DNA from: a virus
Virus record (IMG/VR): IMGVR_UViG_3300045988_097468
DNA length: 35,924 nucleotides
Strand: one strand, 5' to 3'
Shown here: positions 2,919-21,811 of the stretch, piece by piece
Position numbering within the stretch: the stretch's first letter is position 1
How the letters are laid out: each line of letters opens with the position of its first letter
Position numbers and translations under genes: made by a program
Notes under the pieces: generated by a model
Told to the model about the DNA's origin: nothing
The model's database searches: none
The model's input: the letters and a program-made list of their open reading frames with translations, nothing else

Positions 2919-2998
2919 TCATATATATGTTTGAGGGCTTATCCTCATTTGGCGATGATATAACTATATCTGTTTTCTTGTCCTCTGAGTGCCGCACT

Positions 2999-3415
2999 TT
3001 ATATTTTTTTTGCCATCATGTAATAGAATTTGCGTCTGATCTCATAGAACAATGTTCTGCCACAAGGTACACCTTGCTGGTCTATCATGCGATATGTGCA
3101 GCCTTCTGTGGTAACATACCTGAGGAGATACGGATATATCTCATCATATCCGGAGACTGCTGCCCTGGCTGTATCCTCAACCAATGCCACCTTATCGATC
3201 AGTTCTGCCCTTCTCATTGCAGCATCTGCTGTCGCATCAGATCCACCACCTGACCCTGTCGGCATCCCTGTAACCTGTGGGCTTCTGTAGGTGTCTGTGT
3301 TATTTTCTATCTCTGCCTTCCATTCATTGTACTGTAAGCAGTATGAGTACGCCGTGGCAAAGGCATGCTTGGATATTCCATACTTCTTATAGTTGATTGG
3401 CCTTACGTTTGGCAT
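2999..3415 (-). CDS. Putative late-gene transcriptional regulator (RinA/ArpU-like)
   Basis: 138 aa, positioned just upstream of the packaging genes. The N-terminal …YCLQYNEWK… and central GMPTGSGGGSDATADAA segment resemble RinA/ArpU-type activators. GGGAGGAG RBS. Confidence 0.45.
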   Translation of the reverse strand: MPNVRPINYKKYGISKHAFATAYSYCLQYNEWKAEIENNTDTYRSPQVTGMPTGSGGGSDATADAAMRRAELIDKVALVEDTARAAVSGYDEIYPYLLRYVTTEGCTYRMIDQQGVPCGRTLFYEIRRKFYYMMAKKI

Positions 3416-3437
3416 TGTCTATCTCCTCCCTTGCTAT

Positions 3438-3701
3438 CTATCCTCTTGATTTCCCAATCTCGCTGCAGATATCTACCGGTATTCCCATTGAACTAACAAC
3501 TTTATCATGCAGCTGATCCATTGTGCGTTCCACATCGAGATTCTCCTGTCCACGACATATACACTCTGTAACATACTGCTCAGCCTCTCTGTAACTGACG
3601 GGTTCAGCAAAAGTAATATATACTGCTATCTTATGTGTACTCATACAGTCCTCGCACTCCACGGCCAAGCTATTCATTTCAATGTCTTTTGTCTCTCTCA
3701 T
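3438..3701 (-). CDS. Hypothetical protein
   Basis: 87-aa ORF. Its ATG overlaps the upstream stop (ATGA), with GGGAGGA upstream. Confidence 0.6.
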   Translation of the reverse strand: MRETKDIEMNSLAVECEDCMSTHKIAVYITFAEPVSYREAEQYVTECICRGQENLDVERTMDQLHDKVVSSMGIPVDICSEIGKSRG

Positions 3702-4204
3702 TCGTTACATCCTCCCGTGAACAGTTCTTTGTACACATCTCGTTCTCCCTCACATCTGGCGAGCGATATCTCAAGACTGTGTATCTTGTCTCTAAGTTTC
3801 CATGACTCTGATGTGTCTATCTCTGCTAGCTCCGCAAGCACAATGCCCAGCGCATCTGCTATAGCTTGACGCACCGCATCATATTCAGCGTCTGTTATTG
3901 TCTTCTTATAGCCTACGCAGTTCTCGCTTCTGGTGTACTGTATCATTGCCGGTGATGCATACATCTTTCCCTGATATACGATCCTTACGTCTGTATCATC
4001 CATGCATCCCTCTCTCAGCTTGATGTATGTTGCTATCCTTCCATTGTCTGCAAGGATGAGCGCCGGGCTTTCTCCCTGTGTGCTCTGTACTATCCATATC
4101 TCTCCTGGTCTTGCTGTGTCCATTTTGTTCTCCTTCCTTGTCGCTCTTGATATCGCTATGCTCGCTGTTGGATCTGAATATCCTTCGCTATTCTTTCCGC
4201 TCAT
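3698..4204 (-). CDS. Hypothetical protein with a possible PemK/MazF-like N-terminal fold and a C-terminal coiled coil
   Basis: 168 aa with an AGGAGG RBS. The segment PGEIWIVQSTQGESPALILADNG… resembles the GDIW/RPAL strand pattern of PemK/MazF. This is a weak, by-eye match only. Confidence 0.55.
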   Translation of the reverse strand: MSGKNSEGYSDPTASIAISRATRKENKMDTARPGEIWIVQSTQGESPALILADNGRIATYIKLREGCMDDTDVRIVYQGKMYASPAMIQYTRSENCVGYKKTITDAEYDAVRQAIADALGIVLAELAEIDTSESWKLRDKIHSLEISLARCEGERDVYKELFTGGCNE

Positions 4205-4410: not shown

Positions 4411-4683
4411 CTACTCCTTTCTCGTGAACCTGTTCATCAAATGGTTGTCAGGATCCTTTTTTATCCTGAATCCTATCTGTTCTTTATCATCTATCACTCC
4501 CGGATCATTGAGCTCTGCCCCGTCAAGAAAGCTTCGGAGCTTCTTCATGCAGTCCGGGCATAAATCTCTTGATCCCGTCACATCTTCGAACATATCAAAC
4601 ATACTTGCCCTTATCGGGGCTCCGTGTTCAAACGACAGGTCGTAGAACGCGCCGCATCTATCGCATTTGCTTGCGTATGCCAT
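4411..4683 (-). CDS. Zinc-ribbon protein (CxxC … CxxC)
   Basis: Preferred start is MAYASKCDRCGAFY… (ATG 4683), with AAGGAGAG 8 nt upstream. A second Cys pair occurs in LCPDCMKK. Confidence 0.6.
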   Translation of the reverse strand: MAYASKCDRCGAFYDLSFEHGAPIRASMFDMFEDVTGSRDLCPDCMKKLRSFLDGAELNDPGVIDDKEQIGFRIKKDPDNHLMNRFTRKE

Positions 4684-4684
4684 T

Positions 4685-5041
4685 CTATACACTCTCCTTC
4701 CTTGATTCATAAGGTTTTGGCAGCTTTCTCCAGGCTACTACCTTATCTGTAATCTTTGAGTATTCGTAATTATCACAATAATCATGCACTTCATACCAGC
4801 CATTTGGAATCCACCAAGAAATACCATCTTCTGTATACTCCCACCCATCTAAGATATCATCATCCACGTTCCATTCTAAATCTTCCAACGAACAATTGTG
4901 ATGTGGGATATATACCGCCTTAACAACTCGACTGTATATTTCACCTGTTATTATTGAGGCTATTTCTATCGTTACAAGAACCTCATCTGAAGTAGTTCCC
5001 TTTTCACATTTGGGAACTGTGTCTATATTCCATTTTGCCAT
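4685..5041 (-). CDS. Hypothetical protein (Trp/Tyr-rich)
   Basis: 118-aa ORF with AAAGGAGAG upstream, tightly packed in the operon. Confidence 0.6.
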   Translation of the reverse strand: MAKWNIDTVPKCEKGTTSDEVLVTIEIASIITGEIYSRVVKAVYIPHHNCSLEDLEWNVDDDILDGWEYTEDGISWWIPNGWYEVHDYCDNYEYSKITDKVVAWRKLPKPYESRKESV

Positions 5042-5061
5042 TATGTATCACTCTCCTTTAT

Positions 5062-5337
5062 TCAAACATCAAACCTCATGTGTAGATATTTTCCTGTACA
5101 TGAGGTTTCCCAATAATAATCTCCCACATACCAATCTTCACCTATGCAAGTCTGATCACACCATTCCTTACACTCTTCTGCTCCCTGTTCGTCTCCTGTG
5201 TGATAATTAACAATATCAGCACCACCAACATCCATGCCGTCAAGATCAAGATGTTCCTTCATCCATTCTCTTATTTCTCCATTAAGTCTATTTCTAAGTT
5301 CAATCTTATCAACTATATCTTTAGGAATTTTATGCAT
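5062..5337 (-). CDS. Hypothetical protein
   Basis: 91-aa ORF with a GGAGGTGGAG RBS. It overlaps the upstream gene by 8 nt. Confidence 0.6.
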   Translation of the reverse strand: MHKIPKDIVDKIELRNRLNGEIREWMKEHLDLDGMDVGGADIVNYHTGDEQGAEECKEWCDQTCIGEDWYVGDYYWETSCTGKYLHMRFDV

Positions 5338-5650
5338 TCACTCCACCTCCGCCTATTTTACGTACGATCTCATATCCTTCATCCTCAATTCTCTTAACGG
5401 TTCTGTATTGCTTAATTGCTACCCATCTTTCTATGTCATCATTTGATATGTCATACATCTGTTTAAGTATCTCTATGCATATCAGCACATCTGCCAGCTC
5501 TTCTGTTAAATGCTGCTTATTTGGCTTACCTCTCATTTCTTTGCTTATCGCCTGAGCCAGCTCACAGCATTCTTCCATACACACCACTGACTGAATGTTT
5601 TTACCGTAGTGCTCTATAGTTACTTTGATAAGGTCCGTATCCATTCTCAT
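5330..5650 (-). CDS. MazG-like nucleoside triphosphate pyrophosphohydrolase
   Basis: 106 aa carrying EECCELAQAI … EELADVLICIEIL, the EExxE…ExxD helix pattern of all-alpha MazG proteins. Confidence 0.7.
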   Translation of the reverse strand: MRMDTDLIKVTIEHYGKNIQSVVCMEECCELAQAISKEMRGKPNKQHLTEELADVLICIEILKQMYDISNDDIERWVAIKQYRTVKRIEDEGYEIVRKIGGGGVNA

Positions 5651-6000
5651 TCTTCTTCCTCCAGATAGTTCTTCCTGAATATATTCATAAATTCTACCCT
5701 TGTGTGCTCTCTCTCAAATGCACGCTGACCGTCTCTCTGAAGTTTCCGCATATTGTCTGCGTTGTTGTGGACTGCTGCCGGTCCAGCAGTATGATGTTCT
5801 ATGCACAGATACACCTTGAGGCCGTATGCCTCAGAGTGTATTCTGTTTGGCCCTCCGAATATGTGATGCTCCTGCAGAGGCTTTCTTCCGTAGTCTCCGT
5901 TAAGTCTTGTGCACAGATAGCAGGTGCCGTCTTTAAACTGCAGGATTGACGGCTTATGCTGTTTTCTTTTTTTCTTGTATACCGGCTTAGGGTACATCAT
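5647..6000 (-). CDS. HNH-like zinc-finger protein (putative nuclease)
   Basis: Contains CYLC … EHHIFGGPNR … LCIEHH … VHNN, an HNH-style arrangement. Start overlaps the upstream stop (ATGA). Confidence 0.45.
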   Translation of the reverse strand: MMYPKPVYKKKRKQHKPSILQFKDGTCYLCTRLNGDYGRKPLQEHHIFGGPNRIHSEAYGLKVYLCIEHHTAGPAAVHNNADNMRKLQRDGQRAFEREHTRVEFMNIFRKNYLEEEE

Positions 6001-13888: not shown

Positions 13889-14049
13889 TCATCCTCCTCT
13901 GCTCCTATGGCATGCTCACGGAATTTCCGTGCTTCTCTGCGCCACTCTTTCTCCGCTTTGCGCCTCTTGCATCTTTTGTATATGTCGGCCAAGATGTGAT
14001 ATACCAACACTCCTGTGAACACGCCGGCAGTTATTACTATATATTCCAT
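13885..14049 (-). CDS. Small single-pass membrane protein (54 aa)
   Basis: ATG 14049 has AAGGAG 7 nt upstream. MEYIVITAGVFTGVLVYHILADIY forms a TM helix, followed by a charged tail. The longer track ORF (to 14106) would run through the palindrome and the upstream gene end. Confidence 0.55.
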   Translation of the reverse strand: MEYIVITAGVFTGVLVYHILADIYKRCKRRKAEKEWRREARKFREHAIGAEEDE

Positions 14050-14064
14050 ATCTACACTCCTTCT

Positions 14065-14083
14065 GGGGTACAATTTGTACCCC
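14065..14083. promoter_or_regulatory. Perfect 19-bp palindrome GGGGTACAA-T-TTGTACCCC in a 40-nt intergenic spacer
   Basis: Read directly from the sequence. It belongs to the same motif family as the three palindromes at 18913..18995. Confidence 0.5.
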
Positions 14084-14089
14084 TGTTGA

Positions 14090-14806
14090 TTACTCAAGCC
14101 AGCCATTTCCCAAATAGTAGAATCCGTACACCAGGGCGATTGTCGCTATAATCCAAATGATCCAAAATATCACAGTTCCAACACCTGACTCCAGATAGTC
14201 GATTGTCTCTTCTATGTTTGAGCCATTGAAGAATCTGCTGTTATCTGAAATTGTGCCGTTCATAAGCTTTGTATAAATCGTTCCTGTATAGCTCGTACCT
14301 ATACCGTAGTAGTTGTATCTCACGTAATATGATTCATTTACCGTGTTGATGTATTTCTTTGAGGGGAGCGCAACCTTATTTGAGGGGAATTTCACTCCAC
14401 AAAAGGTTATTTCTTTACACTTGATATCCTCACTGCTCACGGCATCCCACGACCAGTATGTTTGTGTTGTGGTATGTGTTCGCCCATTGCCGTCAACGGT
14501 CGTTACTGTCCGTGTATGCTGTGTGTAAATTTCCTTGACCTTTTTCACATACATATATTCCCCGCCAAGCTCCGGGTATGTAACTGTATCAACTGCTTTA
14601 AGCTCTCCATATACAAATGCATTACCAACGTTGGTGTCCATGCCGTATTGAAGCAGCTCCTGGCTATTTATTTTGACCGCTTTGTTGTACTTCTCATTCT
14701 TGTCCATCTCATGCTCCGATATCTTGCCAGAGATCAGAAATCCTACTGCGATCATCACGGCAACTATAGATATGCTGACCAGTATTTCTCTTTTTGTTAT
14801 TTCCAT
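14090..14806 (-). CDS. Two-pass membrane protein with a beta-rich central domain of about 190 aa, partner of LemA
   Basis: 238 aa with an N-terminal TM (ILVSISIVAVMIAVGFLISG) and a C-terminal TM (VGTVIFWIIWIIATIALVYGFYYLG). It starts 3 nt after the LemA stop. Confidence 0.65.
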   Translation of the reverse strand: MEITKREILVSISIVAVMIAVGFLISGKISEHEMDKNEKYNKAVKINSQELLQYGMDTNVGNAFVYGELKAVDTVTYPELGGEYMYVKKVKEIYTQHTRTVTTVDGNGRTHTTTQTYWSWDAVSSEDIKCKEITFCGVKFPSNKVALPSKKYINTVNESYYVRYNYYGIGTSYTGTIYTKLMNGTISDNSRFFNGSNIEETIDYLESGVGTVIFWIIWIIATIALVYGFYYLGNGWLE

Positions 14807-14809
14807 GCG

Positions 14810-15364
14810 TTACCTCTCTTTAAACAGATCCTGCGGAGCATCCACAGGTGCGCTGTAGTTGAGGTATTCATATTCCTGTGATTTATAGCCCAGCATTCCA
14901 AGGAATACCCGGGTCGGGAACTTTCTCACATATCTTTTGTATTCTTTTACCTGTTTGTTATAGTTGCTTCGGTATTCAGCTATCAGATTCTCAGTCATTG
15001 ACAGTTCGTTCATCAATGTCTTGTAGTTCTCATTTGACTTCAACTCCGGATACGCCTCGGCTACCGCCGTGATGGCTGTAGTAACATTTTCAATGTCTCC
15101 TGCGGAATTTTCCCGCCCATCCACTATAGCTTTGAGCGTCTCTGATTCATGCGTGTCGTACTGTTTCACGCAGTCTGCAAGATTGTATACAAGGTCAACC
15201 CTTCGCTTTTCCTGGACTTTTATATCTGATGATGCCGTATTCACCTGCTCCTCCAAGGCTATCGCCCTGTTCTGTGAGCTCTGAATACCAAGCACTACCA
15301 TGACCACTACTGCTATCACTCCGGTGCCGATTATTATCGGTAATTTCCATTTTGTGTTTTCCAT
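14810..15364 (-). CDS. lemA: LemA family protein
   Basis: 184 aa with an N-terminal TM. Helical body motifs are QVNTASSDIKVQEKRRVDLVYNL…, …AYPELKSNENY… and …YNKQVKEYKRYVRKFPTRVF…, typical of LemA. Confidence 0.8.
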   Translation of the reverse strand: MENTKWKLPIIIGTGVIAVVVMVVLGIQSSQNRAIALEEQVNTASSDIKVQEKRRVDLVYNLADCVKQYDTHESETLKAIVDGRENSAGDIENVTTAITAVAEAYPELKSNENYKTLMNELSMTENLIAEYRSNYNKQVKEYKRYVRKFPTRVFLGMLGYKSQEYEYLNYSAPVDAPQDLFKER

Positions 15365-15436
15365 CTTTTCTCTCCTTTGAATTCTTGTGTTATACTTCCC
15401 TTACAGGCTCCCGCCAGAGCCAAATTCTGCACCATT

Positions 15437-15598
15437 CTATTTTGTGTACCAATATATGAACATCGTATAAATCACGCATATCGTTATGACATACGGCGGA
15501 TACCATTTTTTACTTCTATCCAGCTTTCTCATAACGGCTATTGCAATCGCAGATGTGATATATACTATTGCTGTCGCCAATTCTATAGTTGGTGTCAT
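15437..15598 (-). CDS. Small two-pass membrane protein (53 aa)
   Basis: Start MTPTIELATAIVY… (ATG 15598) has AGGAGAGAG 4 nt upstream. Two hydrophobic helices. Confidence 0.55.
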   Translation of the reverse strand: MTPTIELATAIVYITSAIAIAVMRKLDRSKKWYPPYVITICVIYTMFIYWYTK

Positions 15599-15611
15599 TG
15601 AACTCTCTCCT

Positions 15612-15815
15612 CTACTGAGTGATCTGTTTAATAGTCCGACCAATTTCCTCCGGGTCTATGACCACATCTTTGTTATAGTGAACATGTGATTCAGCTACCG
15701 TCCTGGCCTGCACCAAGCTCGCCAGGGCGGCTATAGTCTCCGCCGATGCTCCGTTGTCCATTATCGAGTCCTCTATGTATTCAATTGTTTCGTCTAACTT
15801 CTCCATGTTGAACAT
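15612..15815 (-). CDS. Hypothetical protein (start refined to MFNMEKL…)
   Basis: AAGGAG lies 7 nt upstream of ATG 15815. Confidence 0.55.
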   Translation of the reverse strand: MFNMEKLDETIEYIEDSIMDNGASAETIAALASLVQARTVAESHVHYNKDVVIDPEEIGRTIKQITQ

Positions 15816-15832
15816 TCTCATTCTCCTTTCCA

Positions 15833-16036
15833 CTATTTAAGAAGGGCGCTCAGATCTTCAGTAAGCACTAACCGATTCTCTATATCTGCAATGACGCGCT
15901 GGACTTCGTCCTGTGCGTTGTTGCCGATCATCTCAAGCTGTTTCACTGTGAATCCCTTTGATGGCAGCGTCTTTATGAATTTTCTGAACTCATCGAGAGC
16001 TGCATTTCTCTGTGTTTCCCACTCTTTGTATTCCAA
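15833..16036 (-). CDS. Hypothetical protein (TTG start)
   Basis: 67 aa. GGAGGTGA lies 7 nt upstream of TTG 16036. It is the first gene after cro. Confidence 0.55.
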   Translation of the reverse strand: MEYKEWETQRNAALDEFRKFIKTLPSKGFTVKQLEMIGNNAQDEVQRVIADIENRLVLTEDLSALLK

Positions 16037-16074
16037 TTACTTCTCACCTCCGTTGTTCTAACCCCCTGCTCGCA

Positions 16075-16284
16075 TTATGCGAGTATGTGTTTAAAAAAAA
16101 TATCCTGCACTGTTGTGTTGTAGTAAGTTGCTATTTTTATCTTTATTTCATCGGTTGGTATTCTTTTGCCCGTCTCGTACATTGCATATGTAGACTGGCT
16201 TATACCTAACGCTTTCGCAACATCTACCTGCGTTTTATCGCCCCTAAGACTTATTAGCCTCTTTGCGATGACTTCCTTATCCAC
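16075..16284 (-). CDS. Cro-like XRE-family HTH regulator
   Basis: 69 aa. QVDVAKALGISQSTYAMYETGKRIP is a classic XRE HTH. It is divergent from the repressor gene and uses a GTG start. Confidence 0.85.
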   Translation of the reverse strand: MDKEVIAKRLISLRGDKTQVDVAKALGISQSTYAMYETGKRIPTDEIKIKIATYYNTTVQDIFFKHILA

Positions 16285-16312
16285 TTGTCATCCCCCTTTC
16301 TATGTTTGTATT

Positions 16313-16411
16313 ATCGCTTTATGCGATTTTGTGAGTTTATAATATCGCTTTTTGCGAGTATTGTCAATCACTTTTTGCGATATTTTTCTTGACTTTATCG
16401 CATAATGTGAT
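16313..16411. promoter_or_regulatory. Genetic-switch operators: four ATCGC-N5-GCGAT-type palindromes (16313-16327, 16344-16358, 16367-16381, 16397-16411), plus a fifth at 16069-16083
   Basis: The sites read ATCGCTTTATGCGAT, ATCGCTTTTTGCGAG, ATCACTTTTTGCGAT and ATCGCATAATGTGAT, with CTCGCATTATGCGAG at the cro stop. Confidence 0.7.
16339..16367 (-). promoter_or_regulatory. Early (cro-side) promoter: TTGACA, 17 nt, TATTAT
   Basis: The -35 is at 16367..16362 and the -10 at 16344..16339 on the minus strand. Operators overlap both elements. Confidence 0.55.
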
Positions 16412-16416
16412 ATTCT
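16389..16416 (+). promoter_or_regulatory. Repressor-side promoter: TTGACT, 16 nt, TATTCT
   Basis: The -35 is at 16389..16394 and the -10 at 16411..16416. An operator occupies the spacer. Confidence 0.45.
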
Positions 16417-16438
16417 GATGATATGAGGAGGTGATAAG

Positions 16439-17092
16439 ATGGCTGAAATAAAAGATATACTAAAAAAATTGCGTGCTGAGAAGAATATGAGTCAAGCAAC
16501 TCTTGCAAGCGAATTAAATGCCGGAGTGAGCACTGTAGCATCTTGGGAAGTTGGTAAACGATTTCCTAGTAGAGATAATATGGAGCAATTAGCCGATATA
16601 TTTAATGTTGATTTGGCTTATTTATATGGAGAGTCTGAAGTTCGTCAACGTGTTCATATAGATAATGATGGTAACGCAATGGTGCCATTAGGTGCATCTG
16701 CAAAGGTTATTCCTGTACTTGGTCGTGTAGCTGCCGGTATTCCGATCAATGCGGTAACTGAAATCATAGACACCGAGGAAATATCCGAGGACATGGCAAA
16801 GACTGGTGACTTCTTCGCTCTGCAGATCAAAGGCGATAGCATGGAGCCTAAGATCAGCAACGGAGATGTTGTTATAGTAAGGCAACAGGATGACGCTGAG
16901 ACCGGCGACACTGTTATCGCTCTTGTGAACGGTGATGATGCCGTCTGCAAGCGACTCAGGAAATACAAGGAAGGTCTTGAGCTTATATCTACTAACCCAA
17001 GCTATGCCCCACTTTACTTTGATGAAGAGACAGTCAAGAGTAAGCCTGTAAGAATCATTGGTAAGGTCGTGGAGCTGAGGGCAAAATTTTAG
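16439..17092 (+). CDS. CI/LexA-like repressor (XRE HTH plus S24 autopeptidase)
   Basis: N-terminal HTH MSQATLASELNAGVSTVASWEVGKRFP, a RVAA-GIP Ala-Gly cleavage site (A99-G100), the GDSMEP Ser nucleophile (S134) and the CKRL Lys (K171). Confidence 0.9.
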   Translation: MAEIKDILKKLRAEKNMSQATLASELNAGVSTVASWEVGKRFPSRDNMEQLADIFNVDLAYLYGESEVRQRVHIDNDGNAMVPLGASAKVIPVLGRVAAGIPINAVTEIIDTEEISEDMAKTGDFFALQIKGDSMEPKISNGDVVIVRQQDDAETGDTVIALVNGDDAVCKRLRKYKEGLELISTNPSYAPLYFDEETVKSKPVRIIGKVVELRAKF

Positions 17093-17104
17093 GAGGGGAT
17101 TATT

Positions 17105-18064
17105 ATGTATGATTTTATGTACAAAAAGAAAAGTTATTTAAAAAGAGCCTTGAAAGGTAAAACCACTTTATTTGGTGCATTGGCTTTCGCATCTTATATA
17201 GCATTTTTTGTAGCATTTTGGAATGTTTCGTTATGGTTGTTGCTGTTTTTTATCCTTGCTATCGTATTCACGTGCATGTATCTTCACGGCAAGTGGGTAT
17301 TAAAGCACGGAACCCCGATACTGCCATCATCGAATCCCGTTCCGCCATTTGTGGCACCGTCCGCCATGCCTGCAGCAATGACATATGCACAGCCGCAAAT
17401 GCCAGCTCCTGCACCATCGCAGATCATGCAGGAACCTCAGAGAGTTCAAACTCCTGTGATTCCAGATCCTCAAACCACTCAACCGCTGCCATCTACTGAA
17501 CACAAGATATCAGAACCTCAGGTTCAAGTGTCTGAAGTTGTGGAGCCTCAAGTTATTGAGTCTCAAGTTCAAGCCGATGCAACCGATTCTGTGAATGAGC
17601 CCGAGAAAACTGGCTTTGTAATGCCTGACTATGATGATGACTACGATTTTAAAGTTTCTGGAACCAGTTTTAGAAAGGAGAATATTTACGATATTCTTAG
17701 CGAAAGCTATTTTTGGGATATGACCAAAGGTGAACTCGTTGAGTTGGGTATGACAGATGAACCTATCTATAAATATGAAAACGGCGGCGGCGAGGCAAAA
17801 TTAATTCCCGAGCCAGATAATCAATACGACCCCGATGCCATCGCTGTTTATGTGGATGACACACATGTTGGATATGTTCCATCCAAGAAGTGTGCAAAAG
17901 TAAAACGTCTTTTGGATTCTGGCACTATTGTATATGCCTTTGCCGAAATATACGGAGGTCCATTTAAGATCATACGTGAGAATGATGACGGTAAATATAC
18001 TATATCAAAAAAAGATCATGATTTTGGTGTTCAGGTTACTTTATACATAAAGAATAAGGAATAA
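17105..18064 (+). CDS. Membrane-anchored HIRAN-domain protein
   Basis: 319 aa. It has a basic N-terminus, two TM helices (about residues 22-62) and a Pro/Gln-rich linker of about 120 aa with EPQV repeats. The C-terminal domain carries …LIPEPDNQYDPDAIAVYVDDTHVGYVPSKK…, the HIRAN signature. Confidence 0.7.
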   Translation: MYDFMYKKKSYLKRALKGKTTLFGALAFASYIAFFVAFWNVSLWLLLFFILAIVFTCMYLHGKWVLKHGTPILPSSNPVPPFVAPSAMPAAMTYAQPQMPAPAPSQIMQEPQRVQTPVIPDPQTTQPLPSTEHKISEPQVQVSEVVEPQVIESQVQADATDSVNEPEKTGFVMPDYDDDYDFKVSGTSFRKENIYDILSESYFWDMTKGELVELGMTDEPIYKYENGGGEAKLIPEPDNQYDPDAIAVYVDDTHVGYVPSKKCAKVKRLLDSGTIVYAFAEIYGGPFKIIRENDDGKYTISKKDHDFGVQVTLYIKNKE

Positions 18065-18082
18065 ATAATATGCCACGAGCCA

Positions 18083-18193
18083 ATGATGTTCACTGAGGAA
18101 GAGGTAGCAACTAACCCGGTGAGGATCATTGGAAAGGTTGTGGAGCTGAGAGGAAAGCTCAAAAAATGCGTATTATGCGCATATTTCTCTTGA
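18083..18193 (+). pseudogene. Relic 3' end of a second, diverged S24 repressor gene
   Basis: It encodes MMFTEEEVATNPVRIIGKVVELRGKL…, compared with the repressor C-terminus YFDEETVKSKPVRIIGKVVELRAKF. In the PVRIIGKVVELR block every nucleotide difference is synonymous. Confidence 0.7.
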
Positions 18194-18218
18194 CTTTTAT
18201 ACGCATAGTGCGTATAAT
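18190..18218 (+). promoter_or_regulatory. hicAB promoter TTGACT, 17 nt, TATAAT, with palindromic operator TACGCATAGTGCGTA (18200-18214)
   Basis: Near-consensus -35/-10 hexamers read directly. The perfect 15-bp palindrome spans the spacer and -10. An imperfect copy TGCGTATTATGCGCA lies at 18167-18181. Confidence 0.65.
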
Positions 18219-18239
18219 ATAATCATAAGGAGGTAAGAA

Positions 18240-18422
18240 ATGACAGTCAGAGAACTTGAAAAACTTCTTCTCCAAGATGGTTGGATTGCAGTCAAGCAGG
18301 TTGGCTCACACAGGCAGTACAAACACCCTAACAAACCTGGTAAGGTTACAGTTCCAATACATAAAGGTGATGTAAGCAAAGGAACAGCAAATTCAATATT
18401 GAAACAGGCAGGGCTTAAATAA
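18240..18422 (+). CDS. hicA: HicA mRNA-interferase toxin
   Basis: 60 aa. LEKLLLQDGWIAVKQVGSHRQYKHPNKPGKVTVPIH…GTANSILKQAGL is a typical HicA. AAGGAGG RBS. Confidence 0.9.
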   Translation: MTVRELEKLLLQDGWIAVKQVGSHRQYKHPNKPGKVTVPIHKGDVSKGTANSILKQAGLK

Positions 18423-18456
18423 GCCCTGCTGGTTACACATAGAAAGGGGTTTTATT

Positions 18457-18852
18457 ATGAAGTTAGTATATAAAGCAATATTTACACCATTTGAAGATGG
18501 TGAGGGTTATACCGTTGAGGTGCCAGATCTTCCGGGATGTGTTACCGAGGGAGATAGTCTTGCTGAGGCTATTGAAATGGGACAGGATGCCGCATCTGGC
18601 TGGATCCTCGGAGAACTTGAAGATGGTCATAGTTTCCCACGTCCAAGTGATCCATCATCTATTACCATTCCTGAAGGATCATTTGCCAATTTTCTTGTAT
18701 TAGATATTGATGCCTATTCAGAACGATATGGAAGTAAGTCCATTCGCAAGAATATAACTATTCCGGCATGGCTCAATACCTACGGCGAAAAGAATAATGT
18801 AAACTTTTCTAAAGTGCTTACAGATGCCCTGTTAAAACAGGCATCTAACTAG
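18457..18852 (+). CDS. hicB: HicB antitoxin
   Basis: 131 aa. FTPFEDGEGYTVEVPDLPGCVTEGDSLAEAIEMGQDA matches the HicB N-domain. The C-terminal …KNITIPAWLNTYGEKNNVNFSKVLTDALL looks like an RHH DNA-binding segment. Confidence 0.85.
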   Translation: MKLVYKAIFTPFEDGEGYTVEVPDLPGCVTEGDSLAEAIEMGQDAASGWILGELEDGHSFPRPSDPSSITIPEGSFANFLVLDIDAYSERYGSKSIRKNITIPAWLNTYGEKNNVNFSKVLTDALLKQASN

Positions 18853-18905
18853 ATTGCGTCGGAGCTCTCAGGTGCCTATGGATCCTTAAGCATGGACAGT
18901 ACGAT

Positions 18906-18996
18906 ATGAGTCGGTGACAAATTGTCACCAACTAGGGTGCAATTTGTACCCGTGTTCAACGCTGGCCGGTGATGAATCGGTGACAAATTGTCACCA
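18906..18996. promoter_or_regulatory. Cluster of three 17-bp palindromes upstream of int
   Basis: GGTGACAA-A-TTGTCACC occurs at 18913-18929 and 18979-18995, each inside a 25-bp direct repeat ATGA(G/A)TCGGTGACAAATTGTCACCA. GGGTGCAA-T-TTGTACCC lies at 18935-18951. Confidence 0.55.
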
Positions 18997-19001
18997 GTTC
19001 A

Positions 19002-19046
19002 AAATTAAATAAAAAAAATCCTCCAGGTGCTACCAACACCCGGAGG
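19002..19046 (-). terminator. Minus-strand rho-independent terminator between hicB and int
   Basis: CCTCCAGGTG and CACCCGGAGG form a 10-bp stem with one mismatch and a 7-nt loop. In minus sense it is followed by ATTTTTTTTATTTAATTTT. Confidence 0.55.
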
Positions 19047-19166
19047 ACAAGTTACCCACAAACTAGGCTTATGAATAACCGTAAATCGCAATATGATTAT
19101 ATCATAAGCCTTCGGATTTTAACAGGGCTTATTTTTTATGCCCTTTTTTAGGAAGGATGATGAAGT

Positions 19167-20264
19167 ATGAGGAATGCGAACGGTTTCGGATCCGTTTACA
19201 AATTGTCTGGCAAACGACGCAAGCCGTGGGCAGCCCGCAAGACTGTCGGCTGGACATTTGATGAAGAACGAGGAAAATCATATCCTATCTACAGCTTTAT
19301 TGGCTACTACGAGACAAGAGCGCAAGCTCTGACTGCTCTGGTCGAATATAATAAGGATCCCTATGATCTACACCACGATACTATCACCTTTGCCGAGGTC
19401 TATGATAAGTGGTCTGATATACACTTCGAGAACGTAAGCAAGTCAAACATCAATGGATATAAGGCGGCTTATGCATTGTGTGATGATATCAAGGATATGC
19501 CAATGCGTCAGATAAAGCTGGATCACCTGCAGAAGGTTGTTGATAAAAGCGGTAAAAATACACCTACCTTGAAAAAATTGAAAATCTTATTTGGACTTGT
19601 GTATGACTACGCTGTGATCCATGAGATTGTGCCACAGGATAAAAGGGATATGGTCAGGTATGTCGATATATCTAAGCCAGGAAACCCGAACTCTATCAAA
19701 CGAACGCCATTCACGAAACGCGAAATAACGACCCTCTGGAGCCTGTACAAGTCCAACTACTATTTATCTGTTGTATTGATCCTTATATACACAGGGGTGC
19801 GTATAAGCGAGCTCCTGGAGCTTAAGAAAGAAGATATACACATGGGTGAACGATGGTTCTATGTTGGCAAGTCCAAGACCGATGCGGGAATCAGGGAGGT
19901 TCCAATCGCAGACAAAATATACCCTTTATTCGAGTATTGGATGGCCAAAGATTGTGACAACCTTATCTGTACCCCTGACGAAGAGCCTTTTACTTATCAG
20001 AACTATTATGACTCCTACTGGATTCCTCTCATGATTCAGCTCGGCTTTGGGAAATTTATCGTTGTTGAAGGGAAAAAGGATCCAGTATATGAGGGTCATA
20101 GACCGCATGATGCAAGGCACACATGCGTATCCCTCTTAACCGCCGCCGGAGTCGATGAACGAATCGTAAGGTCGATAGTCGGACATAAGGGCCAGGGAGT
20201 CACAGAAACCGTATATACACACATTGAACTGCCACTTAAGTTGGAGGCGATAAATAAGATATGA
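19167..20264 (+). CDS. int: Tyrosine recombinase / phage integrase
   Basis: 365 aa. It has an N-terminal SAM-like domain, then GVRISELLEL (Arg), HDARHTCVSLL (HxxR) and GHKGQGVTETVYTH (catalytic Tyr). Confidence 0.9.
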   Translation: MRNANGFGSVYKLSGKRRKPWAARKTVGWTFDEERGKSYPIYSFIGYYETRAQALTALVEYNKDPYDLHHDTITFAEVYDKWSDIHFENVSKSNINGYKAAYALCDDIKDMPMRQIKLDHLQKVVDKSGKNTPTLKKLKILFGLVYDYAVIHEIVPQDKRDMVRYVDISKPGNPNSIKRTPFTKREITTLWSLYKSNYYLSVVLILIYTGVRISELLELKKEDIHMGERWFYVGKSKTDAGIREVPIADKIYPLFEYWMAKDCDNLICTPDEEPFTYQNYYDSYWIPLMIQLGFGKFIVVEGKKDPVYEGHRPHDARHTCVSLLTAAGVDERIVRSIVGHKGQGVTETVYTHIELPLKLEAINKI

Positions 20265-20620
20265 GTAGATCAAAATACATCAACACCTATGTAAAAAATA
20301 AATACGACAGAATAACCCTCCAAGTCCCTAAGGGCACCAAGGAGGAATGGAAAGCCCTGGCCGCTGATAATGGTCTGAGTTTGAATGAATATATCTGTCG
20401 CTTGGTAGCCGGTAATCAAGTGGAGATCTTTGACAGAATGCAGATTGCTGATAAGTACAGAAGAATGATCAGAACGCTTACCGGCAACACGAAGGATGGC
20501 TACACAGTCACGCTCAAGGATGGTTTTGTATATGAAGATGGCACCTCACAGTTCTGGTCTAAGTCCAAACCTGAGTTACGCAAGAATATTAAAAAGTGTT
20601 ATGCACATAACACCTTGTAG
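20261..20620 (+). CDS. RHH (Arc/CopG-like) domain protein translationally coupled to integrase
   Basis: ATGA overlap with the int stop. The N-terminus YDRITLQVPKGTKEEWKALAADNGLSLNEYICRLV fits a strand-helix-helix pattern. The C-terminal 70 aa are unknown. Confidence 0.55.
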   Translation: MSRSKYINTYVKNKYDRITLQVPKGTKEEWKALAADNGLSLNEYICRLVAGNQVEIFDRMQIADKYRRMIRTLTGNTKDGYTVTLKDGFVYEDGTSQFWSKSKPELRKNIKKCYAHNTL

Positions 20621-20621
20621 A

Positions 20622-20654
20622 GTGTTACTAGTGTGTTTCTAGTGTGTTACTAGT
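20622..20654. repeat. Three tandem 11-bp repeats GTGTTACTAGT / GTGTTTCTAGT / GTGTTACTAGT (putative integrase arm sites); a further copy TGTTTCTAGT lies at 20817-20826
   Basis: Read directly. They lie in the 273-bp non-coding region between the int operon and the endolysin gene, where attP is expected. Confidence 0.55.
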
Positions 20655-20708
20655 AGCGAAAAAATAGGGTATTCCTGGGTGGTTTTTGCGCCGGCGCAAA
20701 ATAAAGAA

Positions 20709-20739
20709 AACCCGCAGAAGCACTTGATTTCTGCGGGTT
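20709..20739 (-). terminator. Late-operon terminator (partly bidirectional)
   Basis: AACCCGCAGAA and TTCTGCGGGTT form an 11-bp stem with a 9-nt loop. In minus sense it is followed by TTTCTTTATTTT. It lies between convergent operons. Confidence 0.7.
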
Positions 20740-20893
20740 CTTGAAAATCTGAATTTGATCGTTCCTTATCTCTTTGATAATTTTTGACCACAGTTTTAAG
20801 CCATTTTTATAGCTTTTGTTTCTAGTAGATTACTACTATTTTTTATCTTACATTATCTTGCAAGCATTTGTCCTAGCATGAGTTTCTACCTTA

Positions 20894-21811
20894 TTATAAT
20901 AACTCATTCACACGATGCTGAATCTTATTAGGATCATACCCTGCTGCCTTAAGCCTGTCAATACGTTCCTGTCCATTGCCCCACTTTCCTATGATGACTT
21001 CATGCGCAACTGCATTGATGATCTTATCCTGTGTCATCTGTGATGCCTTGACAAGTTTGTTGACTGCTGCCTGAACCTTGCTATAGTCATATCCAGCCTT
21101 TGTCAATCTGCTCTTGCGATCAGCACCATTGCCCCAGCGGCCAACCAAGACTTCCCTTGCAATCGTATTTACACTCTTCTTTACCGGCTTAATAGTGGCA
21201 ATCTTCACAGCCTTAGTAGCCAGCTTGCGCCATGATACTGCGCTGATGTATGCTTTGTTCAGATCAAGGCTACCAGCGTATCCTGCAAGCTTGCCGACAG
21301 ATGTATACTGCCTGATCAAGCAATTATACTTTCCCTCGTTCCACGGATGCTCCTGGTAGCCAGTCTGCTCATAATCTGGGTACTGAGCGACCCACAAGCC
21401 ATACCCAGCTTTCTTCACTGCATCCATGGCGCTCTTCTGTACATATATGATCGGCTTAATGCCGGTTTTTTTCTGCACATAACTACACCACTGCAAGCAC
21501 CACTCGAGATCCTTGACGCCAAACAGATGGTTGTTTTTGGCTTCCCAGTCAAGCACAATTATCGCCTTGCCGATGTATTTCTTGCAGCAGGCCAGGAAAC
21601 TATCAGCCTCTTTCTGCGGGTCTCCGCCGTTTGCATAGTGGTATACCCCCAGTAGCTTCTTCCTGTTCAGGACCTTATCACAATGCGCTGTAAAATATCT
21701 GTTCTTGTAGTCTGTTCCCTCCGTCGCTTTCACGATACAGAAGTCGTATGGCACTTTAGCAAGGTCTATATTTTTATCCCCCTGCCAGGCACTAATGTCT
21801 ATACCATTCAT
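20894..21811 (-). CDS. Endolysin: GH25 muramidase with two Cpl-7-type (CW_7) wall-binding repeats
   Basis: The N-terminus GIDISAWQG…FCIVKATEG…GVYHYA is GH25. The C-terminus has two copies of G(R/K)WGNGxxRxxxLxxAGYDxxK(V/I)QxxVNxL. Confidence 0.9.
   Translation of the reverse strand: MNGIDISAWQGDKNIDLAKVPYDFCIVKATEGTDYKNRYFTAHCDKVLNRKKLLGVYHYANGGDPQKEADSFLACCKKYIGKAIIVLDWEAKNNHLFGVKDLEWCLQWCSYVQKKTGIKPIIYVQKSAMDAVKKAGYGLWVAQYPDYEQTGYQEHPWNEGKYNCLIRQYTSVGKLAGYAGSLDLNKAYISAVSWRKLATKAVKIATIKPVKKSVNTIAREVLVGRWGNGADRKSRLTKAGYDYSKVQAAVNKLVKASQMTQDKIINAVAHEVIIGKWGNGQERIDRLKAAGYDPNKIQHRVNELL

Follow-up and report, generated by a model that had tools for sequence, protein, structure and literature searches.

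Kwun et al. (2025; PMC12637031) gave the name thaL to the pneumococcal phiRMV8 version of a gene encoding a transmembrane HIRAN protein associated with lysogeny (ThaL), in a single mention and without a functional test. Here, we analyse a ThaL-like gene located in a 35,924-nt stretch of viral DNA (IMG/VR record IMGVR_UViG_3300045988_097468), referred to below in its whole length as the window, whose positions serve as coordinates. The encoded protein appears to be a divergent new member of the named ThaL family, and the gene is best explained as an accessory ("moron") gene of the ThaL type in a temperate gut Coprococcus phage. We infer the family identity with phiRMV8 ThaL from the published description: the two proteins share a transmembrane hairpin and a C-terminal HIRAN domain, and both genes lie on the lysogeny strand of a prophage lysogeny module, flanked by the repressor and integrase genes.

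The window protein is homologous to the transmembrane HIRAN (TM-HIRAN) proteins encoded in the lysogeny modules of the Streptococcus phages IPP67 and Javan349, which have the same hairpin and C-terminal HIRAN domain and the gene order repressor, TM-HIRAN, integrase on the lysogeny strand (with an additional ImmA-like gene in IPP67). Over their HIRAN regions, the IPP67 and window proteins are 30% identical (E=2e-11), and the homology there includes the family-specific motifs YKY and GGPYK, the latter present as GGPFK at aa 284-288 of the window protein. The relatives differ in three respects: (i) the hosts belong to different classes (Streptococcus to Bacilli, Coprococcus to Clostridia), (ii) the Pro/Gln-rich linker of the window protein is far longer (~110 aa) than that of its homologues (median 44 aa, range 8-132) and (iii) the IPP67 protein has a long basic N-terminal extension, which the window protein lacks. 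Some family members may carry such an extra N-terminal module, as in this pneumococcal protein (L001, 3024-3938).

Three further systems resemble the locus in position or composition. In lambda, the exclusion genes rexA and rexB are co-transcribed with cI in the lysogen, and one of the products is a membrane protein; Rex is a two-protein abortive-infection system without sequence relationship to the window protein. Lactococcus phage Tuc2009 carries, between the integrase and the repressor, a gene (orf2; L148, 1339-1860) encoding the small protein Sie2009, which has a membrane segment at its N-terminus, and Sie2009/Ltp-type proteins of temperate phages of Gram-positive hosts reportedly act as a lysogen-expressed block to DNA injection. 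Homology between Sie2009 and the window protein was considered and rejected (hhalign probability of 0.2% against the HIRAN profile). Sie2009 matches the Pfam family tRNA_anti-like (an OB-fold family; E=3.5e-11), and the two are unrelated membrane-anchored beta-barrel proteins occupying the same slot in different phages. The candidate defence system PDC-M03, composed of a HipA-like kinase and a HIRAN-domain protein ("HipI"), is similar in having a HIRAN protein, which is there, however, a predicted antitoxin and not a membrane protein.

The gene and the encoded protein have the following layout:

17105..18064, + strand: ThaL-like gene, ATG start, 319 aa (Pfam HIRAN; homologues with the same architecture)
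17105..17164, + strand: basic N-terminal tail, aa 1-20, with 7 K/R and 1 D/E, predicted cytoplasmic
17165..17287, + strand: hydrophobic hairpin anchor, aa 21-61 (first transmembrane helix TLFGALAFASYIAFFVAFW, turn NVS, second transmembrane helix LWLLLFFILAIVFTCMYL)
17288..17620, + strand: flexible Pro/Gln/Val-rich linker, aa 62-172, ~110 aa (from prediction confidence and composition)
17621..18061, + strand: extended HIRAN domain, aa 173-319 (Pfam, profile matches to PDB, AlphaFold2, Foldseek, BFVD and column conservation)

Since homologues at 94, 78, 59 and 38% identity keep this architecture, the gene can be regarded as real and conserved, not a chance open reading frame (ORF). The layout agrees with that described in an earlier note on this DNA (a basic N-terminus, two transmembrane helices, a flexible Pro/Gln-rich linker and a C-terminal HIRAN domain), apart from the "EPQV repeats" of the linker, which proved modest: a 15-nt unit in 2.7 copies (17530-17569).

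Both profile searches and structure prediction confirm the assignment of the C-terminal domain to HIRAN. Pfam HIRAN (PF08797) matches aa 222-278 with E=2e-11 (44 bits, against a gathering cut-off of 24.7), and the family profile matches, among PDB sequences, lp_0118 (3k2y; 3e-6) and the HIRAN domain of HLTF (1e-4). AlphaFold2 models the domain with high confidence (predicted local distance difference test, pLDDT, of 93-98 in the full-length model and 94 for the domain alone). The top 17 Foldseek matches of the domain model in PDB are all HIRAN domains (HLTF or lp_0118; probability 0.95-1.00, E from 4e-3 upward), the human HLTF and yeast Rad5 HIRAN structures 4s0n, 4xzf, 2mzn, 5bnh, 6kcs and 6l8o being top matches with a probability of 1.0. 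Among predicted viral structures (BFVD), the best match is A0A8S5T5A9, annotated as DUF4236 (TMq 0.87, root-mean-square deviation 1.8 Å), and the extended HIRAN form as such is conserved in viruses. In HLTF, the HIRAN domain makes up the N-terminal part of a eukaryotic protein that is both an SNF2 translocase and a RING ligase, and it drives the reversal of replication forks; in the window protein it is the only globular part, membrane-tethered and enlarged by helical and beta-hairpin inserts.

The N-x-Y-D-x-N-A-I motif of HLTF and an aromatic residue matching its Y72 are conserved. In an alignment of 211 family domains with HLTF, whose central motif was confirmed by the PDB profile match, the pocket positions are occupied as follows:

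G186 (HLTF G69): kept in 210/211
Position 189, F in the window protein (HLTF Y72): Y, F or H in 198/211
N239 (HLTF N91): kept in 211/211
Position 241, Y in the window protein (HLTF Y93): Y or H in 182/211
D242 (HLTF D94): kept in 210/211
A245 (HLTF A97): kept in 211/211

In HLTF, D94 reportedly contacts the 3'-OH. Stacking contacts with the terminal dinucleotide are made by the HLTF residues Y72 and Y93 (PMC4666394). By this alignment, the residues making up the DNA 3'-end pocket of HLTF are kept and almost invariant in the family, in line with the pocket postulated earlier, and the probable ligand of the cytoplasmic HIRAN domain is a DNA 3' end.

The anchor was recognized in a Kyte-Doolittle scan as a hydrophobic segment of 41 residues (aa 21-61), interrupted by NVS and directly followed by GKWVLKHG; AlphaFold2 predicts it as helical, with pLDDT >90. 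The data support a two-helix hairpin that is embedded in the cytoplasmic membrane and has both its ends on the inner side, so that the HIRAN domain would be held in the cytoplasm by a long and flexible leash, as had been proposed from the positive-inside rule. This location is predicted because the hairpin flanks are rich in K/R and because there are relatives carrying an N-terminal HIRAN domain and a C-terminal anchor. The topology statistics refer to the best 149 cluster representatives of a HMMER search with aa 173-319. A membrane anchor is present in 126 of them; 109 have an N-terminal hydrophobic region, which in 91 cases is 36-70 residues long and thus exceeds one membrane crossing, and another 17 begin with the HIRAN domain, lack a signal peptide and are anchored at the C-terminus, an arrangement that fits only a cytoplasmic domain. 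The 91 hairpin-type homologues contain on average 2.6 K/R in the N flank, 3.9 in the C flank and 0.24 in the centre, the last being enriched for G, S, T, P, D and E. An extracellular HIRAN domain was considered and rejected: both flanks are positive, the hydrophobic stretch (~40-55 residues) exceeds a single span, and the C-anchored relatives lack a signal peptide.

The HIRAN domain is constant among relatives that differ in the type of anchor (N-terminal hairpin, single N-terminal transmembrane segment, C-terminal hairpin or none), which argues for an anchor role rather than an effector role of the hydrophobic part. The linker is predicted to be disordered, with a pLDDT of ~50 and no secondary structure in the full-length AlphaFold2 model; aa 69-172 include 20 P, 13 Q and 12 V. 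DNA homology to an integrated relative (L004) ends within the linker, at ~17311, which marks a recombination breakpoint and suggests that shuffling of the anchor and HIRAN modules is possible. The transmembrane region is nearly identical among close homologues, including that of locus P0003. Selection on the anchor was rejected as the cause of the identity with P0003, which a recombination breakpoint in the linker explains better.

The gene is preceded by the repressor gene and the genetic switch:

16439..17092, + strand: CI/LexA-type repressor, 217 aa (Pfam Peptidase_S24 1e-30 and HTH_3 2.6e-11; PHROG 4 "transcriptional repressor" 1.2e-47)
16285..16438, no strand: divergent cro/repressor switch region (palindromes and promoter scan)

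The repressor gene is the first gene of the lysogeny operon and is separated from the HIRAN gene by 12 nt. The latter has its own Shine-Dalgarno sequence AGGAGG (17091-17096, + strand), located 8 nt 5' of the ATG and overlapping the TAG of the repressor gene (17090-17092), and no terminator-like site was found between the two genes (17092-17105). All genes in the order repressor, HIRAN gene, hicAB and integrase lie on the + strand, opposite to all lytic genes, which are encoded on the - strand. The switch region contains four 15-bp palindromes of the pattern ATCGCWTWWTGYGAK (16313-16327, 16344-16358, 16367-16381 and 16397-16411), and a fifth (16069-16083) is placed just beyond the 3' end of cro; in total, the pattern is matched at 5 sites (8 strand-matches), where chance alone would give 0.17. 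The four switch-region palindromes overlap two promoter-like sites, one on the + strand (16389-16416), which would drive a repressor-thaL transcript, and one on the - strand (16367-16339), directed towards cro. The five palindromes probably serve as operators in the genetic switch. The short gap, the separate ribosome-binding site, the lack of an intervening terminator, the strand opposite to the lytic genes and the operators around the promoter make the HIRAN gene look like the second cistron of the repressor maintenance transcript, and its product is predicted to be made in lysogens. The claims that the gene directly follows the repressor on the same strand, with its own AGGAGG, and that it is expressed from the repressor operon are thus borne out at the level of gene organization.

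An exhaustive HMMER search with aa 173-319 yielded 1300 clusters (50% identity) at E<=1e-3, 541 of them at E<=1e-10. The earlier note took a membrane-anchored HIRAN protein to be unusual and possibly of a new type; this view has to be abandoned, as most representatives are anchored and the family was named in 2025. Judged from these representatives, membrane anchoring is the dominant architecture of a large family. In the literature searched, there was no paper on a defence function of membrane-anchored HIRAN proteins.

The survey of TM-HIRAN proteins in lysogeny modules that the note had suggested shows that this arrangement recurs in phages of Streptococcus and gut Firmicutes, and the family is abundant in Streptococcus prophages. 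The gene order repressor, TM-HIRAN, integrase also occurs in metagenomic phages, whose integrases are of the tyrosine or the serine type. Loci were retrieved with a profile of five sequences (A4), a nine-sequence profile (A2) being too divergent for pattern-based retrieval, and the pattern scan of genome contigs is too restrictive for a fair taxonomic census. Six of the seven loci looked up without restriction to the viral collection (P0003, P0028, P0032, P0016, P0045 and P0055) lie in phage lysogeny regions; the seventh (P0008) is chromosomal and is placed three genes from an Abi_2 gene. Among the 28 viral-contig loci with a full-domain match, the typical upstream neighbour is a same-strand helix-turn-helix gene: 10 of 24 upstream ORFs match HTH_3, 3 match S24 and 3 match M78/ImmA. 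On the downstream side a recombinase gene is typical: the non-redundant ORFs there that reach 300 aa number 15 and comprise 11 tyrosine integrases, 3 serine recombinases and 1 AbiD, and in one relative an AbiD gene directly follows the TM-HIRAN gene. Upstream repressors are of various types (S24, ImmR/ImmA or short helix-turn-helix), as are the integrases (tyrosine or serine). In the contexts examined the family is almost wholly phage-borne, and since no other conserved partner gene was seen there, the HIRAN gene looks like a single-gene unit. One phage with a TM-HIRAN gene also carries a reverse-transcriptase (RVT_1) gene amid its tail and lysis genes (L149, 7280-8299), which may be part of a diversity-generating retroelement.

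The slot between the repressor and hicAB/integrase was compared in phages with orthologous repressors, and its cargo is as follows:

L131 and L134: a 72-aa ORF only
L135 and L139: a 73-aa ORF followed by a 290-aa PemK/MazF-like protein (L135, 4683-5746)
L141: a 359-aa HSDR_N (restriction-enzyme N-terminal) protein (4683-5759)
L145: a 372-aa AbiD (4757-5872; PADLOC 3.9e-34)
L138: a TM-HIRAN protein, with a repressor 66% identical to that of the window
L142-L146 except L145: a TM-HIRAN protein, with a repressor allele ~50-53% identical to that of the window
L140: a BRCT-domain protein behind the orthologous repressor (2964-3869)

In the window, the HIRAN gene is followed by:

18089..18160, + strand: repressor relic, the last 24 codons (FTEEEVATNPVRIIGKVVELRGKL, compared with FDEETVKSKPVRIIGKVVELRAKF of the window repressor; from alignments)
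18166..18852, + strand: hicA/hicB toxin-antitoxin pair (Pfam HicA 1.1e-22 and HicB 9.6e-16)

The varying cargo supports the view of the HIRAN gene as an exchangeable cassette, and the slot is a small hot-spot for defence and toxin cargo. The HIRAN gene is dispensable, because close phages with the same repressor, hicAB and integrase either lack it (L131 and L134) or carry defence or toxin genes. The relic is fused directly to the hicA promoter region; in L131 and L134 the intact repressors end in the same motif, followed by the same region, and the relic is a scar left by the exchange of a repressor-thaL segment. Both the inserted cassette and the downstream repressor relic postulated in the earlier note are thereby upheld. 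The hicAB pair has its own promoter (18190-18218; 11/12 consensus positions) and two related palindromes (18166-18182 and 18201-18215), which look like HicB operators. In L004, hicAB is missing and two small ORFs are found instead.

The lysogeny module is closed by the integrase gene:

19167..20264, + strand: tyrosine integrase (Phage_integrase 3.3e-18; synteny with L004 and L096)

The stop codon of this gene is overlapped by a 119-aa ORF (20261-20620, + strand) with weak ribbon-helix-helix/NikA-like matches (E=1.9e-4), which is kept 3' of the integrase gene in relatives and may encode an excisionase or a directionality factor. Homology to integrated relatives stops at ~20777. In L004 (9557-10405), the host genes rpsI and rplM lie beyond this end, whereas in the window (~20777-20893) it is adjoined by a GH25-type lysin gene. 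For this reason, the window is the excised or circular form of the phage, with attP at ~20777 and the attachment site beside the rplM-rpsI operon. The closest genome match is a metagenome-assembled genome (MAG) of Coprococcus sp. (94% amino-acid identity); a search of window positions 14000-21000 for near-identical DNA among cultured phage genomes found nothing. On the other side of the switch, the - strand carries a block (14090-15364) composed of a LemA-family gene (14810-15364) and a gene (14090-14806) whose 238-aa product has a hydrophobic segment at each terminus. The block is missing in an otherwise syntenic prophage of a Coprococcus MAG (L096) and constitutes a second slot with variable cargo, which lies on the lytic-strand side of the switch.

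By analogy with the sister phages, whose slot holds genes for AbiD, a MazF-like toxin and an HSDR_N nuclease-like protein, a role of the window protein as a lysogen-expressed exclusion or defence factor is plausible and the most likely one, as was suggested before. The specific mechanism that we put forward, tentatively and as one that could well be correct, is that DNA entering the cell has its 3' ends captured on the inner side of the membrane. The tethered HIRAN domain would bind free 3'-OH ends arriving there, which would belong to the genome of a superinfecting phage or to other linear DNA coming in, and the binding would block the next step (circularisation, priming or recombination), which would protect both the lysogen and the prophage. 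Tethering would keep the domain off the 3' ends at host replication forks. Many Gram-positive cos phages have 3' overhangs.

Several points weigh against the capture of incoming ends. HIRAN favours single-stranded 3' ends, and incoming phage DNA is double-stranded. The TM-scores of the Foldseek matches in PDB are moderate (0.38-0.50 over the top 17, 0.42-0.50 for the HLTF/Rad5 structures), because the ~147-residue domain contains a 36-residue helical insert (aa 195-230) and the beta-hairpin insert, and the ligand specificity could differ from that of solved HIRAN domains. In the full-length AlphaFold2 model, residues 21-68 form one unbroken helix without an explicit hairpin turn. Since 23 of the 149 representatives have no detectable anchor, membrane placement does not appear to be obligatory for the function of the family. 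The sole family-naming paper found in the literature (PMC12637031) assigns no function. PADLOC gives a weak partial match to PDC-M03B (46 residues, E=2.4e-6); membership in PDC-M03 was considered and rejected, the neighbours being the repressor and hicAB genes, with no HipA gene adjacent.

An abortive-infection sensor-effector that follows the logic of lambda cI-rexA-rexB is the main, though unlikely, alternative to end capture. Here, the HIRAN domain would sense 3' ends or replication intermediates, the proteins would cluster, and the hairpins would permeabilise or depolarise the membrane, with death or arrest of the cell before the phage completes its cycle. Such a role fits the position directly behind the repressor gene, which is also that of rexAB in lambda, the presence of AbiD in the same slot of sister phages and the common use of two-transmembrane hairpins as defence effector modules. 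The near identity of the transmembrane region in close homologues would also speak for it, but in the case of P0003 this is attributed to the recombination breakpoint in the linker, not to selection. An anchor that can be replaced by a single transmembrane segment or a C-terminal hairpin, or be absent, would be unexpected for a killing module, and the window protein shows no evident oligomerisation element.

A function in the life cycle of the phage itself is improbable. DNA ends would be held at the membrane in the manner of phi29 p16.7, which is alike in architecture (an N-terminal transmembrane segment, a spacer and a C-terminal DNA-binding domain), and the protein would aid replication, the establishment of lysogeny or integration and excision, or would damp the RecA/single-stranded DNA signal for S24 cleavage. 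In many phages the gene has the repressor on one side and the integrase on the other, which agrees with this, but the gene is dispensable, being absent from L131 and L134 and replaced by defence or toxin genes in others, and its association with various repressor types and with both tyrosine and serine integrases means that it is not tied to one recombination or induction mechanism.

In an anti-transformation ("anti-curing") role, the HIRAN domain would bind the 3' end of the single-stranded DNA leaving ComEC, an ideal ligand at the inner membrane face given the 3'-to-5' polarity of uptake, and would avert deletion of the prophage by homologous recombination, in keeping with the abundance of the family in prophages of naturally competent Streptococcus. 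The conflict between prophages and transformation is documented, but such a role is very improbable, as thaL-carrying phiRMV8 lysogens are transformable and lose the prophage by deletion through transformation at roughly the efficiency with which base substitutions are transferred (PMC12637031), and Coprococcus is no known naturally competent organism.

The ThaL family is large and occupies the classic slot of lysogen-expressed exclusion genes. Given a nearly invariant set of pocket residues and a cassette of just one gene, the hypothesis of end capture is open to simple experiments. It is possible, if doubtful, that the family as a whole represents widespread and mechanistically new single-gene prophage exclusion factors, which trap incoming 3' ends on a leash from the cytoplasmic side of the membrane. 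If ends are indeed trapped in this manner, the lysogen would have a new way to resist superinfection, and the HIRAN domain would have its first defined job in bacteria: a domain so far known from eukaryotic fork remodellers would there stand in the front line, sensing or blocking the ends of foreign DNA.

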